A stretch of 24,996 nucleotides of DNA from Verrucomicrobiota bacterium (GTDB lineage: Bacteria; Verrucomicrobiota; Verrucomicrobiia; Opitutales; Cerasicoccaceae), in NCBI GenBank assembly GCA_039818205.1, contig JBCBUK010000028.1:1-24996 (forward strand). The letters are read 5' to 3'. The notes under the pieces are model-generated. The model ran no database searches, was not told where the DNA came from, and was given only the letters and a program-made list of their open reading frames with translations. Position numbers and translations under genes: made by a program. Positions 1-13,130 of the stretch are shown in pieces. Each line of letters opens with the position of its first letter. Position 1 is the first letter of the stretch.

Positions 1-1025
1 AGTGCCGCTTCTTCCGGCGTGTTTTCGTTGCGGAATCGCTCGGAAAATTCTTCGCTGCTTTCGCCTGGTCGAATGTAGGGAGCGTAGGGCTTTGATTCCC
101 CGGCATAGGGGCTTTCTGGTTCTTCGTTCTTTTGCTCTTCAATTGGCTGATTGGCTGGATCATACCAACCAAGCATTTCGTCACCTTCACTCAAAAGGAT
201 CTCAGGATATGCAGGGTTAATCGATTCTAAAACCTTGATTCGAGGGGCACCGCCACGGGGCGAAGTGTAGCTCAACCCCTCGTCGATCTCTGATTGCGTT
301 GCTAGACGTGTGTTATAGCGTTTTAGAGTCCTTTCACCCTTCACCAAGAAGCAATAGATTTCACCCTTCTTCACATTCGGGTTGTTCAGTGATTCGGGTT
401 TGCGGATCAAAACGATTTCTCCGTCGTCGATCTTTGGTGCCATGCTATCGCCAAACACTTTAACAGCGAAGTGGTTAGCGCTATAATCGCTCTTAAATTC
501 AGCACCAAACTCATCTCCCGAAATCGGCGAGCCTGCTGCAACCCCATAACACGGCAGGTAGTGCCATCCTTCCGGTTGATTCAATGGAATCACCTTCGAG
601 TCCATGGGTTCTTCTTGGGGTTTGAGCGCAGCGTCACGTTCGGCGCGTGCGGTATCTGCCAAGAACCCAATGATTCCTTTTACATCAGTATCACCTGGGA
701 GCCAATCGCGAATCAGCCGAAAGTCTTCTTCCATCTCCCGAGCCTCAGGGTTGTCTCCATGAATTGATATGCCAATCTCCGACGGTGAGCGACCAGCTCT
801 GACAACTTGTTCTTCAAGCCAAGCTCGAAGAACCGTTAGGCCGGTTTCTTTGTCCCCCCATAGTTTTGATGAACATAGCGCCTGGAGTAGGGCTTCTCCT
901 GGTGCTTTGGTTTCAGCTATGACACGTGAGAGATTTGATTGTGCGGTTCCGATTTTGCCGGAGAGAGATTTCTGTGTATGGCCATGCTGATTCATGGCTG
1001 CTGTTAGTGCGGCAGATAGGCTCAT
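1..1025 (-). CDS. cI: CI/LexA-family repressor: N-terminal HTH plus S24 autopeptidase (3' end outside window)
   Basis: Manual translation from the ATG at 1025 is open to base 1. MSLSAALTAAMNQHGHTQKSLSGKIGTAQSNLSRVI (XRE HTH), YGVAAGSP (Ala-Gly cleavage site), VKVFGDSMAPKIDDGEIV (catalytic Ser), ERTLKR (catalytic Lys), LESINPAYP. Confidence 0.92.
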   Translation of the reverse strand, partial: MSLSAALTAAMNQHGHTQKSLSGKIGTAQSNLSRVIAETKAPGEALLQALCSSKLWGDKETGLTVLRAWLEEQVVRAGRSPSEIGISIHGDNPEAREMEEDFRLIRDWLPGDTDVKGIIGFLADTARAERDAALKPQEEPMDSKVIPLNQPEGWHYLPCYGVAAGSPISGDEFGAEFKSDYSANHFAVKVFGDSMAPKIDDGEIVLIRKPESLNNPNVKKGEIYCFLVKGERTLKRYNTRLATQSEIDEGLSYTSPRGGAPRIKVLESINPAYPEILLSEGDEMLGWYDPANQPIEEQKNEEPESPYAGESKPYAPYIRPGESSEEFSERFRNENTPEEAA

Positions 1026-6800: not shown

Positions 6801-7679
6801 ATGAGCCTTGCACCAATTCAAGATTTGGCGGTTACCGTGAACCGCGTCTGCTACCCAGCGGACACCGTTGAGAATGCCACTTGGTTCATTCTCGACACCG
6901 ATCACGGCACTTGTAAGGGCAACATGAATTGGCGCCCTCGTGCCAAGGAGCGTTTGGTTTTTCGGGGGCGCTATGGCCAATACCAGGGACGCCGAGAATT
7001 CAAGTTCACTTCGGCGGCGTTGAATGTGCCTACAGACTCCCGCAGCTTACTTCATTACGTTTGCGAGATGGCAAGCGGCATCGGCCCAGCCATGGAAACG
7101 CAAATATGGGAAACGCTCGGCGAGCGCTGGGCGGAGCTCTCTGATACTGATGTTCCACGGCTAAAGGGCGCGAAGTTTGAAAGCTTCAGTAAGGCTATGG
7201 AGCTAGTCGAACAGGATCGGGGCAAGGGCCAGGTGATCGCCGCTTTGCTCAAGGCTGGCGCAAGCATGAGCATGGCTACTGCCGCATTCCAGAAATGGGA
7301 AACCGAAACGCTCGGCGTTGTTCAAGCTGATCCATACCGATTGGCTGAGCTTCCGAACTATGGCTTCTGCCATGTCGATACCGATATTCGCATTCACTAC
7401 GGCATAGTTGATGATGACCCGCGCCGCATTCGCGCTGCCGTCGTCTACGTGATCCGCCAACTAACCGGCAGCGGATCTACAGTTGTGACATGGTCGGACG
7501 TTCTTGAAGCGGGCATCAAGCAGCTTGGGGGAATGAGCAAGCTCATTGGTGAGCAAGTCAGTGCGATGCTTACCGAGGGCACCTTGAAAGGCTTCACCGA
7601 AACGCAAAGCATCGCACTTGCAAGCGACTTTAAGAACGAACTCGAAATTTGGAAATTTCTAACCGGAGACCCATTTTAA
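6801..7679 (+). CDS. recD2: RecD2-family helicase N-terminal half (OB/HhH region, no ATPase motifs)
   Basis: GRYGQYQG..EFKF, SGIGPAM..QIWETLG, DPYRLAELPNYGFCHVD, DDPRRIRAAVVYVI, GSTVV match the RecD2 N-terminus. It stops just before the motor domain. Confidence 0.85.
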   Translation: MSLAPIQDLAVTVNRVCYPADTVENATWFILDTDHGTCKGNMNWRPRAKERLVFRGRYGQYQGRREFKFTSAALNVPTDSRSLLHYVCEMASGIGPAMETQIWETLGERWAELSDTDVPRLKGAKFESFSKAMELVEQDRGKGQVIAALLKAGASMSMATAAFQKWETETLGVVQADPYRLAELPNYGFCHVDTDIRIHYGIVDDDPRRIRAAVVYVIRQLTGSGSTVVTWSDVLEAGIKQLGGMSKLIGEQVSAMLTEGTLKGFTETQSIALASDFKNELEIWKFLTGDPF

Positions 7680-8069: not shown

Positions 8070-8474
8070 ATGAAAAAATACAGCCAAGATAATGAAATTT
8101 TTCGTGAAGATGCGCCTGAAGACGCTCTTGAGCAAATTTGGGATTCTCCACACCGCAACCTAAAGCCTGGTGATGTTGTTACAGTATATGGTGGAACCGT
8201 CATCTTCTCCAAGGCATCCAGCTATGCACCCGATGTGGCGGAATACATGATGAATAACGCTAACGATGAGCATAGCGAAATCGCAGATGGTTGGGATTTC
8301 TCAAAAGAGGAAGAAGACTCACTTCAATCGGAAGTCTGTGCAGTAATTGATGCGTGGTGTGACAAGCGTGATATGCATCCTAAATTCGGACACATGGTAG
8401 ATGTCCACGAGTTGAAATATCTACTCAAAGACGGATTCGGAACCTTTGAACTAATCTTTGATAGCAGCAAGTGA
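8070..8474 (+). CDS. Hypothetical acidic phage protein
   Basis: ATG 8070 with AAAGGA upstream. The stop overlaps the helicase start. Confidence 0.8.
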   Translation: MKKYSQDNEIFREDAPEDALEQIWDSPHRNLKPGDVVTVYGGTVIFSKASSYAPDVAEYMMNNANDEHSEIADGWDFSKEEEDSLQSEVCAVIDAWCDKRDMHPKFGHMVDVHELKYLLKDGFGTFELIFDSSK

Positions 8475-9643
8475 TGCAACTTGACCCAACACAACTAGAC
8501 GCCGTGGCACATGCGGTTGGCAACCGCTTTTCAGTGATCACTGGCGGAGCAGGAACCGGCAAAACGACAATAATTAAGGAAATGGTTGATAACCTCAAAG
8601 CCGAGAAAAAGCCCGTTCACCTTTGCGCGTTCGCGGGCAAGGCATCAGCCCGCCTCAAGGAAGCAACAGGCCGCGAAACATCCACCATTCACCGTTTGCT
8701 TGGCTACAATGGCGTGAAATTCATGAACCCAACTTTGCAGGGCTCAACCGTGATCGTGGATGAAGCGTCCATGGTTGATAGCGAATTGATGGCGGCGATT
8801 ATCACTCGCAAGCCCGATCGCCTGATCCTGGTTGGCGATGAAGCGCAGTTGCCGCCCGTTGGCAAGGGCCAGCCATTTCATGATATCATCGCTGAAGCGC
8901 CCAAGCTCGTTTACAACCTGACTAAATGCTTTCGGAATCGAGAGGCCGTTTTCAAAGCGGCAACGGCCATTCGCAATGGTGATTCAATTCTTGATCAGGA
9001 TCAATCTCCTGGCGAGCGTTGGAGCATCCTTGAGACCGGCAACGCGCAACAGACACACGATTACATTTTGTCGCTCGTTCAGCAGGGAGCTTTCGATTTC
9101 AATCAAGACATTATCCTTTGCCCAAAGAATGGCGACAGCGAGGCGGACCCGTGCACCGTCAAATCGCTCAATGATGATATTGCCGAAATCATCAATCCGC
9201 GCAAGCCAGATGACGGCGCTATCAAAGTTGGCGATCGCATCATCAATACCAAGAACGTTGCCGAAAAGGACATCTGGAACGGCACGACAGGCACCGTTCA
9301 CGCCATCGGCCAAAGGGGCGATGTTCATATTGATCTAGACGTCCCAACCGATGAGAACGAAGGAACGGTTCACCTAACCAGAGATGAGGCCAAGAATCTC
9401 AAGCTTGCCTATGCGCTCACTGTCCACAAGTCGCAGGGGTCGCAATATCGGCGCGTCATGTTCGTAGCCCTTGGCCGCGATCAGCACGCGCTTCTGACAC
9501 GATCATTGATCTATACAGCCGTCACGAGAACGCGGGAGATGTGCGCCGTTGTTGGCGAGCATCGAGCATTTCAAAAAGGGCGCATGAAGGTGACGAGTAA
9601 GCGCACTGTGATCCAAGAACTTTCAAAACAGGAAGCGGCGTAA
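8471..9643 (+). CDS. recD2: RecD2-family SF1B helicase motor (C-terminal half)
   Basis: ITGGAGTGKTT, STIHRLL, IVDEASMVD, LVGDEAQLPPVG, IWNGTTG, LAYALTVHKSQGSQY, LIYTAVTR. Confidence 0.95.
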   Translation: MMQLDPTQLDAVAHAVGNRFSVITGGAGTGKTTIIKEMVDNLKAEKKPVHLCAFAGKASARLKEATGRETSTIHRLLGYNGVKFMNPTLQGSTVIVDEASMVDSELMAAIITRKPDRLILVGDEAQLPPVGKGQPFHDIIAEAPKLVYNLTKCFRNREAVFKAATAIRNGDSILDQDQSPGERWSILETGNAQQTHDYILSLVQQGAFDFNQDIILCPKNGDSEADPCTVKSLNDDIAEIINPRKPDDGAIKVGDRIINTKNVAEKDIWNGTTGTVHAIGQRGDVHIDLDVPTDENEGTVHLTRDEAKNLKLAYALTVHKSQGSQYRRVMFVALGRDQHALLTRSLIYTAVTRTREMCAVVGEHRAFQKGRMKVTSKRTVIQELSKQEAA

Positions 9644-9654
9644 ATGAAGACAAT

Positions 9655-9702
9655 TATTAACGACGAGTCCTTGCGGTCGTCGCAAGGGACGGCGGGTTAG
9701 GC
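9655..9702 (-). other. attC-like integron cassette recombination site (48 bp)
   Basis: Minus strand reads R'' GCCTAAC, 5 nt, L'' GTCCCTTG (extra C), CGACGACCG, L' CAAGGAC, 5 nt, R' GTTAATA. Confidence 0.65.
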
Positions 9703-10012
9703 AAGAATATTGAAAGGTCAAAAAATGATACGTGTAAACTATAGCGAATGCAAAAAAGCCGGTATCGATGATGACGAAGTGAGGAAAATCGCTGCCTGCT
9801 TTCAGCGGGCCATGCTCCGGGCTGATAAGCTTGGCATCAGTGTTTTTGGCGGCTCCAGCCAACTTACCCTTCGTGTTAATGGTTCGGAGCTAGAGGGCGA
9901 ACAGCATATGGGCGGCCAGTTGATCGTGGGTGAGATGGACGGTTGCGTTGTGTCTGGTGGATGTGGCGCCCAAGGGCCAGGGCCGGACGGATTAATTCGT
10001 GGTGAAGCCTAA
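9661..10012 (-). mobile_element. Putative integron gene cassette (352 bp) inserted in the phage
   Basis: Begins G|TTAGGC on the minus strand at 10013/10012, exactly complementary to R'' GCCTAAC of the attC at the other end. It contains exactly one ORF. Confidence 0.6.
9725..10012 (+). CDS. Hypothetical protein carried in the putative cassette
   Basis: ATG 9725 with GAAAGG upstream. The TAA stop lies inside GCCTAAC. Confidence 0.8.
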   Translation: MIRVNYSECKKAGIDDDEVRKIAACFQRAMLRADKLGISVFGGSSQLTLRVNGSELEGEQHMGGQLIVGEMDGCVVSGGCGAQGPGPDGLIRGEA

Positions 10013-10074
10013 CTGTGATTAGATGGAAACTGTTCCATATAAGGCAGCAATAACCGGGCAAAGGAAGAACGCAA

Positions 10075-10743
10075 ATGAAACCAGATTCACAGATTGAGCG
10101 CGTGCTAGATCAGGCTGATTCAGTTGATCTACAAGAAGGCTTGGAAGCTTATTTTAATTACCACCGAACCTTGAAGCTAATCGCCGATGAACACGGGATT
10201 GATGTTCGCCGCGTGTGCGGATGCTTTGCCGCCCTAAGCCCGAATTCTGATTACTTTGGCAATCTTCGCTCAACGCTTACCTTGTGCATCGGTTTCGCCA
10301 ATGGCCTAAAATCCGAATCATGCACGGTTACTACTTACAATGTGAATCGCGAAAAAGCATGGCGTATTTTAAATGGTGAACATTTCTTTTCCGTGTTTCG
10401 CGGTCTAAAAGTCCGCAACTTTTTCCTGAATCTCTCCGAGCCCGATCACCCCGAAGCGGTCACGATTGACGGTCACATGATGAATGTTGTTCACGGATCG
10501 CCAAGAACGATGCATCAAAGTTCGGTTACGCCATCGGGATACGTTCGGGTAGCCAAGGCATTCTCAAGGGTCGCAGCAAAGCGCGGTATGCTACCAAGCC
10601 AATCACAGGCGATTGCTTGGTTCACATGGAAGCGAATTCACAACATCGTTTATGACGGTCAGGTAGACATGTTTCGCGAAGGAAACCAGTGGCGCAACTT
10701 TGTTCCGATTGAAGAAATTAAACCCTTTCGAATAAGTGCATGA
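10075..10743 (+). CDS. HhH-GPD glycosylase-like phage protein (DUF7178-like)
   Basis: FAALSPN, GLKVRNFFLNL, AVTIDGHM (VDxH-type catalytic Asp), PSQSQAIAWFTW. Confidence 0.7.
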   Translation: MKPDSQIERVLDQADSVDLQEGLEAYFNYHRTLKLIADEHGIDVRRVCGCFAALSPNSDYFGNLRSTLTLCIGFANGLKSESCTVTTYNVNREKAWRILNGEHFFSVFRGLKVRNFFLNLSEPDHPEAVTIDGHMMNVVHGSPRTMHQSSVTPSGYVRVAKAFSRVAAKRGMLPSQSQAIAWFTWKRIHNIVYDGQVDMFREGNQWRNFVPIEEIKPFRISA

Positions 10744-13130
10744 TTACTGCAATAGATTTTTATGATAAAGATGACGTCCTTCCGCGATGCGGTAATTGCC
10801 TTTCCTGGCTCAAATACATTGGCGTTGAAGTCCACAATGGGCGATGCGCTGCGATCTGGCGAAATGGTGACAACCCGAGCGCGGTTGCTGTGTCTGCTGA
10901 CCAATGGTATGACCATGTTTCCAATGAGGGCGGCGGACTGGTTGAGCTTGTTCAGGCAACCAAGCTCGACGGAATACGAGATGCGAAATCAGATCCGGGA
11001 TACTTCAACAAAACGCTAGCCATTCTCGCCGAGTGGGCGGGCGTGCAGCCTCGCCAGAAGCGCCGCGTTGTTTCCGAGGGCTACAACCCAATACAGGCCT
11101 TGCTTGATGACGGATACATCGAGACGAAGCGCTATCTGTATCAAGATGACGCCGGGAACGTAATCTATCACAATGCGCGATTTGAGCACCCCGACAAAGC
11201 CAAAGAGTTTCGCCAGGGCACGCCGGATGGAAAATGGACAGTTAAGGGCATTGAGCCTTTACTGTATCGCTGGAATGATTCCGCAAAATCTTCTTCATGG
11301 TGCGTCATTGTCGAAGGCGAGAAGGACGTTGATACGCTAGTTGATCGCGGCGTTCCTGCAACCAATGGGCGAACAGCTTCAAAATGGAGCCAAGACACTC
11401 TGAATCGATTCGCCGGAAAGGATGTGTGCATTATTCGCGATAACGATGATGCGGGATCCGACAAGGGCAAGATTGTTGCAGCCCGCCTAAAGGGAATCGC
11501 CAAGAGCGTCAGAATGGGCGCGATATCTGGGCTTCCCAAAGGCGATGTGACTGATTGGTTCGAGAAGGAGTCAGGCGACATGACCAGGCTATTCGCCTGG
11601 ATGCACAAGCTACCCGAGCTCGACCTATCAAAGGAGGAATTCAGCGAGACACGCGCAATTGCCAAAGAGGCAAACCGATTCCCGTTCTCAAATTACATTT
11701 CGGTCAAGGTCACAAATCATCTAGGCAAAGAGAAGACGGAAAAGAAGCCGCGCCACATTAACGATATGGTGAAGGACATCTACAAGCGCTTCATGGACTT
11801 CCCCCGCGTGATCGGTCGCGGTTGCCTATTCGATCACGATCTTGATACTGGCGAAGTTCATATGCTCCATAAGGCGGATCACCTTATCGGCTGGATTGAC
11901 GCAAAGAGCGGCAAGAACTGCTCATTCTCCAATGGTGATAACTTTCGAACAGCCGCGCAGTTATACGATCGGCTTGCACGCGAGGGTATTTCTTATGAGG
12001 CAATCTCCGAGGTGCCAAACTGGCCAAAGCGAAATGATATTTTCTATGCTCATGAGCCGTTGCCCGCACCAACTCCAGGTCATCGCGTATTTGAAGAATT
12101 TGTGAGTATGTTCAATCCGGCTTCGGATGCATACCGGACGATTTTGAAGGCGCTGATTGCCGCGCCTCTCTGGTATGTGCCGCGCGTATCTCGCCCCGGA
12201 TGGATCATTGATAGCGAAGACGGGGCAGGGTGCGGAAAGACGACGATCATTGAAATGGTTGCTCACTTGTATTCCAGCGATCCGATTCGAAGCAATGCGC
12301 AGGAGATGAGGCGGAACTTTGGTGAGGTGATCAAGCGCCTAGTGTCAGCTAGTGGTCGCGGTAAGCGAATATTCCTAATGGACAATGTCACGGGTCAATT
12401 TTCATGCGATGAGTTGGCCGACATGATGACGAGCCAGAGTATCAGCGGCAAGGCCCCTTACGGGCGCGGCGAAGAGACTCGGCCAAATGATCTTGTTTAT
12501 ACTATCACAGCAAATTCCGCGACCGTGGACAATGATTTGGCCGAGCGCTGCTACTTCATCTACGTGAAGCGCCCGGAATGGTCCAAGAACTGGCGGCGGG
12601 ATGTTCTAAAGTTCATTGAAGCGAATCGCATGCAAATTCTAGCTGATATCGTGGACCAACTTGAGAACGGCGAGAAGCGGGCACCGGAAACACGATTTCC
12701 TGAGTTCTGCTCAGAGATCCTAGGGCCGCTATGTGAGAGCGAAGAAGAATTTCGAGCTGCGCTGGTCGCAATGGAAGAAGCTAAGGCGGCGTCCAATGTC
12801 GAAGAAGAGCAAGCCAAGACCATCGAAGATGAATTTCAATCGCGCTTGATCGAGGCTAATTTTCGCCCTGGCAGCGAACACATATTTATACGCAGCGAAG
12901 TCTTGCGAGCATGGCTAGATGACATTTTCCCCGGCGAAAAGAAGGGTGCCCAGTATATCCGAAACCTTGCGAAGAATGACCTTACTCAGCGCTTCGATTC
13001 CAAGCCGCACATCTATCCGCACCATGGGCCAAAGCGGAAAAGGGGCATTATGTGGGTTCCCGAGAGCGCACAAGGCGAGACGGTTCGCATCATCGGTATG
13101 AATGGCCGGAAGACAATAGAGGTCATTTAG
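10740..13130 (+). CDS. Primase-helicase (TOPRIM primase plus P-loop NTPase)
   Basis: VIVEGEKDVDTL and IRDNDDAG (TOPRIM), KGDVTDW, GAGCGKTT (Walker A), FLMDNV (Walker B), ITAN, DLAER. Confidence 0.9.
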   Translation: MITAIDFYDKDDVLPRCGNCLSWLKYIGVEVHNGRCAAIWRNGDNPSAVAVSADQWYDHVSNEGGGLVELVQATKLDGIRDAKSDPGYFNKTLAILAEWAGVQPRQKRRVVSEGYNPIQALLDDGYIETKRYLYQDDAGNVIYHNARFEHPDKAKEFRQGTPDGKWTVKGIEPLLYRWNDSAKSSSWCVIVEGEKDVDTLVDRGVPATNGRTASKWSQDTLNRFAGKDVCIIRDNDDAGSDKGKIVAARLKGIAKSVRMGAISGLPKGDVTDWFEKESGDMTRLFAWMHKLPELDLSKEEFSETRAIAKEANRFPFSNYISVKVTNHLGKEKTEKKPRHINDMVKDIYKRFMDFPRVIGRGCLFDHDLDTGEVHMLHKADHLIGWIDAKSGKNCSFSNGDNFRTAAQLYDRLAREGISYEAISEVPNWPKRNDIFYAHEPLPAPTPGHRVFEEFVSMFNPASDAYRTILKALIAAPLWYVPRVSRPGWIIDSEDGAGCGKTTIIEMVAHLYSSDPIRSNAQEMRRNFGEVIKRLVSASGRGKRIFLMDNVTGQFSCDELADMMTSQSISGKAPYGRGEETRPNDLVYTITANSATVDNDLAERCYFIYVKRPEWSKNWRRDVLKFIEANRMQILADIVDQLENGEKRAPETRFPEFCSEILGPLCESEEEFRAALVAMEEAKAASNVEEEQAKTIEDEFQSRLIEANFRPGSEHIFIRSEVLRAWLDDIFPGEKKGAQYIRNLAKNDLTQRFDSKPHIYPHHGPKRKRGIMWVPESAQGETVRIIGMNGRKTIEVI

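Follow-up and report, generated by a model that had tools for sequence, protein, structure and literature searches.

A single integron-type cassette with a reversed gene in the early operon of a prophage from a Verrucomicrobiota bacterium

The stretch of DNA analysed here (24,996 nucleotides, hereafter the window) corresponds to the complete contig C28 of a Verrucomicrobiota assembly and contains an integron-type gene cassette of 352 bp that is real and has a clear polarity. Its single gene is antisense to its attC site and shares the orientation of the early operon in the temperate phage that carries it. It is best explained, with a probability of about two in three (0.68), as a single cassette from a phage pool of reversed cassettes that was inserted at a secondary GTT site. 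The features concerned are:

3 to 1025, minus strand: repressor-like ORF with an S24 peptidase and a weak HTH, running off the contig end
8471 to 9643, plus strand: RecD2-like helicase, C-terminal part; left flank of a variable slot
9655 to 9702, minus strand: attC site of 48 bp, whose top strand is the minus strand
9702 to 9696, minus strand: attC R'', which fits RYYYAAC
9690 to 9683, minus strand: attC L'', 8 nt, one of them the extra base (site position 16, located within 9686-9688)
9673 to 9667, minus strand: attC L', 7 nt, pairing 7/7 with L'' minus its extra base
9661 to 9655, minus strand: attC R', GTT kept; bases 9660-9655 apparently derived from the target
9661 to 10012, minus strand: cassette unit, 352 bp
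9712 to 9717: purine-rich, RBS-like stretch
9725 to 10012, plus strand: ORF of 95 aa (phrog_19257), antisense to attC
10007 to 10013, minus strand: far core G/TT, with a presumed crossover between 10013 and 10012
10075 to 10743, plus strand: DUF7178 gene, the slot's second accessory gene, not part of the cassette
10740 to 13130, plus strand: primase; right flank of the slot

The gene order of the window runs from the repressor-like ORF on the minus strand through replication and recombination genes on the plus strand to lambda-like head and tail genes. The S24 peptidase and HTH of the ORF at 3-1025 indicate that the element is temperate, with the plus-strand genes as its divergent early operon. 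Between the repressor-like ORF and this operon an inverted repeat was observed at 1041-1097 (24-nt arms, 83% complementary), which is likely an operator region. The cassette is located between the RecD2-like helicase and the DUF7178 gene, with the primase next. A reading made from the sequence only had described an integron-type cassette at this position, and every element was found where it had been placed, including the cores, the 5-nt spacers, the extra L'' base and the target-derived end. The far core was complementary to the cassette's own R'' at 7/7 positions (10013-10007), as claimed, and the arrays of the host genus obey the same rule of complementarity.

The attC site has two 5-nt spacers and a centre of 9 nt. 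Position 23 is an A (9680) within a 5-nt terminal loop, no stem follows beyond it, and both extrahelical bases are at canonical positions. The plus strand, equivalent to the bottom strand of the site, folds at -11.9 kcal/mol (z -3.3), and the computed folding probability of the site was 0.045 when integrated and 0.14 as a circle, compared to 0-0.54 for host sites. According to Bouvier et al. (PMC2727003) the first extrahelical base, a G, sets the strand choice and is followed by a T 6-8 nt further on, and Nivina et al. (PMC7439510) reported better recombination with a spacing of 6 bp and with a stable stem surrounding the second base. The window site resembles such canonical sites in its R and L boxes, its unpaired central spacer, the extra G16 of the bottom strand and a T 6 bp on; it differs from them in having no apical stem past the second position and in its length of 48 bp, as against at least 55 bp in 154 reference sites (minima of 57 bp among 90 viral, 55 bp among 46 genome and 56 bp among 18 host-genus sites). 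This length, which had been read correctly, weakens the case for an intact, fully active attC, and not the case for derivation from one. The site has most likely had its tip deleted; it could also be a naturally minimal, working attC. A search of Rfam gave no match. The left flank was considered as an attI and was set aside, with a spacing that by eye is unlike that of the one host-genus attI seen and is one base off what we take to be the spacing of attI sites. In addition, an 18-codon ORF (9644-9700, plus strand) begins immediately behind the helicase stop, spans the entire attC hairpin and terminates in R''; it could take ribosomes past this structure, and such a length is not unusual by chance.

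To score the site, 18 attC sites from this assembly and two congeners were used as a reference set, from which the window site was excluded. Two models were built from this set, a covariance model (R2) and a PWM. A model R1 was left unused, since the pairing already known was missing from the structure it predicted. A covariance-model check had been proposed by the sequence-only reading, and with our own host-genus model (R2) it turned out positive: the best match in 79 kb was exactly 9655-9702 on the minus strand, with a modest 20.4 bits (E 7e-4), and the next-best match had 13.5 bits. In a score combining a PWM with pairing, the site reached 28.7, which lies within the leave-one-out range of the host sites (22.4-41.8) and ranks 16th among 275,300 AAC..GTT pairs in the genome. 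The R'' 7-mer has a frequency of 2.5e-5 per position in the genome and three copies in the window, one of them overlapping the stop codon. The L-box pairs covary among the 18 host-genus sites, which is not independent evidence because the sites were chosen partly for that pairing. Searching for the same site elsewhere by its L-arm pattern returned six viral matches, all inside coding sequence and without cores, and blastn of the 352-bp unit against 50,697 phage records returned nothing.

These results bear on whether the structure could be a chance or regulatory hairpin ahead of an ordinary phage gene, with a coincidental 7-mer at the far end. Such a hairpin would fit a site that is shorter than any reference and scores modestly, that was unlisted in a filtered genome-wide covariance run (150 of 1154 candidates scored; 18 sites at 26-55 bits, mostly training sites), and whose gene has ordinary genes as homologues. 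It is nevertheless quite improbable, since four independent features coincide, namely the cores, the spacer lengths, the extra base 16 together with A23, and a far core placed on the stop codon. The E-value of 7e-4 argues in the same direction, no terminator-like T tract was found at the site, and in a negative control for the spacer pattern L-box pairing with one mismatch or fewer was seen in 0 of 66 viral matches that share these cores and spacers. The polarity of the site was equally distinct, with the opposite (plus) polarity scoring -9.4 instead of 28.7. Together with the extra base and A23, which mark the minus strand as the top strand, this makes it highly unlikely that a normal sense cassette was inserted via its top strand and that the inversion is only apparent, even though the stop codon overlaps the AAC core as in normal cassettes and top-strand recombination at R'' occurs once the extrahelical bases are moved or removed (PMC2727003).

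The ORF occupies 288 of the 352 bp of the unit, with its TAA falling within the far core, and the earlier description of a single ORF filling the unit, antisense to attC and co-oriented with the early operon, was accurate. It matches the phage family phrog_19257 (E 1e-18), with 68 hits among 50% representatives, and the closest homologue (P0002) is 88% identical. Distant homologues were located at 13 viral loci (12 distinct), 12 obtained from one search and the remaining one from five C-terminal pattern matches, the other four of which were non-homologous; at these loci they are ordinary genes that often abut their neighbours, and none has an attC. A gene-context search with the window protein and P0002 gave no confirmed loci. 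The AlphaFold model of the 95-aa protein had a pLDDT of 90.9, and structure searches with it returned no PDB match (Foldseek best E 2.1; VIA best Z 3.1). No Pfam family was found for the protein and its Atlas neighbours are hypothetical proteins. From its family and position, the gene is taken to encode an early accessory protein.

The slot between helicase and primase is variable. Of 14 related phage loci that include DNA downstream, 8 have the two genes directly side by side, a count that omits two loci ending inside the helicase and one weak match, and other genes are present between them in the remaining six. A sister prophage on contig C30, with 75-81% identity to the early region of the window, has different genes in the slot, including a methyltransferase-like ORF (by eye). 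No attC was found in the slot of the related phage loci or of this sister prophage. The sequence-only reading had suggested that relatives be searched for the empty site, and this gave no result, the relatives all being too distant: a precise empty site was absent among them, with helicase protein identities of at most 88% and slots that differ throughout. In a DNA search of 16 family genomes the sole match was the C30 sister prophage, ending at the helicase end, and the helicase and DUF7178 relatives from viral and metagenome contigs were likewise all too distant. The contigs of three runs contained no empty-site or excision joint; two of these runs hold almost none of the stretch, and contigs drop rare forms. 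Apart from the slot, the RecD2-like helicase is itself split, with an HHH part at 6801-7679, a helicase part at 8471-9643 and two small genes between them, where the C30 sister prophage has two other genes. Further related prophage pieces were present in the assembly on C13 (from about 107000), C29, C30, C40, C22, C59 and C63.

The contents of the slot also allow the cassette to be viewed as the last remnant of an integron or array of the phage's own, from which intI and the other attC sites have been lost. The DUF7178 gene in the same slot would be in line with this, as would the intact reversed integrons of many phages and the segment 10013-10038, whose AAC and short palindrome could represent a collapsed site. 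We consider this origin unlikely, as no intI fragment or second attC was found in the window, in the sister prophage contigs or at 16 related helicase loci, and as the DUF7178 gene overlaps the primase start and has no core; for the same reasons that gene was rejected as a second cassette. The palindrome itself (10023-10038; 16 bp, perfect, 6-bp arms and a 4-bp gap) lies just outside the cassette, ahead of DUF7178, with this sole exact copy in the window, and may be either an operator or a site that has collapsed.

As stated by the sequence-only reading, the window has no intI, and no integrase family was detected among the 42 ORFs scanned; IntI would hence have acted in trans. This part of the earlier proposal was supported; the host integron as the source of the gene was not. 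No ORF in the assembly passed the IntI cut-off. The N-terminal half of an intI was present at C39:7540-8117, cut after about 190 codons and abutting a cassette array, and the catalytic half was absent from the assembly. A second N-terminal-like intI piece was observed at C1:195015-195353. The IntI cut-off was passed in 3 of 15 other family genomes, all of the same genus.

If the phage drew on the chromosomal integron of its host, it would have taken one of its rare inverted cassettes. The attC arrays and the intI remnant of the assembly, the three genomes of the genus that pass the IntI cut-off and the recognition of the window site by a host-built model are all compatible with such a source. 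However, the cassettes called in the host genus were sense-oriented, and among the best 80 bacterial genome loci 0 of 32 clear cassettes were antisense. The gene family is of phage type, and an A at position 9, found in 18/18 host-genus attC sites, is missing in the window site. A check for the unit in the host, also suggested earlier, came out negative, with no second copy of the gene in this assembly and one weak match with two stops in 400 other genomes of the phylum. The host is therefore given little credence as the donor of the gene; it may have lent the integrase. Four host attC sites were listed without a close neighbour site (C1:91738-91793, C7:97183-97269, C2:566118-566199 and C5:43448-43504) and are possible chromosomal single cassettes.

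The orientation of cassettes was compared between viral and bacterial integron loci. With an alignment of congener IntI sequences, the best 80 of at least 541 viral and the best 80 of at least 600 genome IntI loci were surveyed; one script called a cassette wherever two attC sites in succession had cores that match, and the strand was that of the longest ORF. Calls that were unclear or duplicates were dropped (59/94 viral, 16/48 genome). Among the clear cassettes of these loci, 29 of 35 were antisense in the viral set as against 0 of 32 in the genome set, and antisense cassettes formed the majority at 19/24 viral and 0/14 genome loci; the loci are related and thus non-independent, and some of the viral contigs may be chromosomal. 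According to this split, the cassettes of phage integrons are of the opposite type to those of bacterial ones. A looser count of the viral cassettes gave 50 antisense and 16 sense. The attC sites themselves had the usual arrangement, opposite to intI, in 36 of 37 viral arrays, and all 19 viral integrases of antisense-majority loci passed the TIGR02249 cut-off. PHROG matches were obtained for 13/29 viral antisense genes versus 3/32 genome sense genes, and in 8 of the 29 viral antisense cassettes the stop codon is at the same core offset as in the window. The sequence-only score of the window site was 22.3 with viral sites versus 14.7 with host-genus sites, which is only suggestive, as the models differ in size. 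The window gene had no homologue at any of the 160 IntI loci surveyed, which leaves its donor array unseen.

In contrast to the usual bacterial cassette, whose gene is sense and ends at attC, the window cassette has an antisense gene, like most of the clear viral ones. It shares with the reversed-cassette integrons of viruses a canonical attC polarity, a reversed gene, cargo of a phage family and a stop codon in the core, and differs from them in being alone, with no intI, array or recognised attI. It also differs from a complete integron, as the only intI in the assembly close to an array is the half on C39 and no plus-strand sigma-70-like promoter was found within 9400-10300. The idea of a phage-borne cassette-capture system, put forward earlier, was not borne out: there is one site only, and no attI-like platform was recognised.

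According to the preferred reading, that of a single reversed cassette from a phage pool, a 352-bp circle would have been excised from a reversed-type integron array, most likely on another phage. An IntI acting in trans, supplied either by an integron phage infecting the same cell or by a related host whose intI is intact, would have recombined the folded bottom strand with a GTT just behind the helicase, and of the two possible orientations, the one retained would be that in which the gene is read by the early transcript. The hairpin, complete to the canonical second extrahelical position, would subsequently have lost its tip; this would lower re-excision and turn the cassette into a fixed accessory gene. 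The cassette is probably decaying.

Single-attC cassettes and clusters of attC sites in phages are already published (Loot et al., bioRxiv 10.1101/2022.09.11.507474; Qi et al. 2023, PMC9892861). Loot et al. described SALINs, IntI-mediated insertion at GWT sites and expression driven by resident promoters, and suggested attC loss by slippage. The window resembles a SALIN at attG in having one cassette with no intI or second attC nearby, a GTT target that fits GWT (a weak criterion) and, as would be expected here too, expression from a resident promoter. It is unlike one in the location of the cassette in a prophage early operon, in its antisense gene of a phage family, in its 48-bp site and in the absence of the CRGM motif of attG hotspots at +6 to +9. 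With the phage CALINs of Qi et al. it has in common attC-bounded cassette DNA in a phage genome without intI; at least two attC sites are required there, and the window has one. The main text of that study describes arrays of the typical kind and a single instance of divergent attC sites, not systematically antisense genes, and phages are seen there as vehicles for bacterial cassettes. A search of the open-access literature, which covered text from PMC4889954, PMC5371416, PMC8352920, PMC5737381, PMC13492144, PMC11551772 and PMC10127599, found no paper on phage cassettes that are systematically antisense.

On its own the locus is modest, and its value lies in what it indicates about the spread of reversed phage cassettes outside integrons. 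It suggests that such cassettes also reach integron-free phages, where tools needing two attC sites miss them. The window site, with complete integrase boxes and no apical stem, probes the minimum of an attC. To our knowledge, there is no settled account of how genes turn into cassettes, and the phrog_19257 family, a plain phage operon gene elsewhere and a cassette here, offers a before-and-after pair. In the available part of PMC8352920, cassette genesis is mentioned with no mechanism given. As a tentative generalization, which we regard as possible and on balance doubtful, phages may keep their own pool of reversed cassettes, in which an attC has become attached ahead of ordinary early genes, IntI in trans spreads the cassettes singly into temperate phages that lack an integron, and tip deletion of attC fixes them there. 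If true, integron recombination would contribute to phage mosaicism in a way that has gone unrecognised, and families that comprise both plain operon genes and cassettes would record cassette birth.

The viral integron arrays L161, L163, L169, L184, L210, L211, L218, L219 and L225 mostly have an intact IntI together with antisense cassettes. Their cargo includes DNA methyltransferase, PAPS reductase and DHH genes, and L161 and L163 appear to have common cassettes in a differing order.
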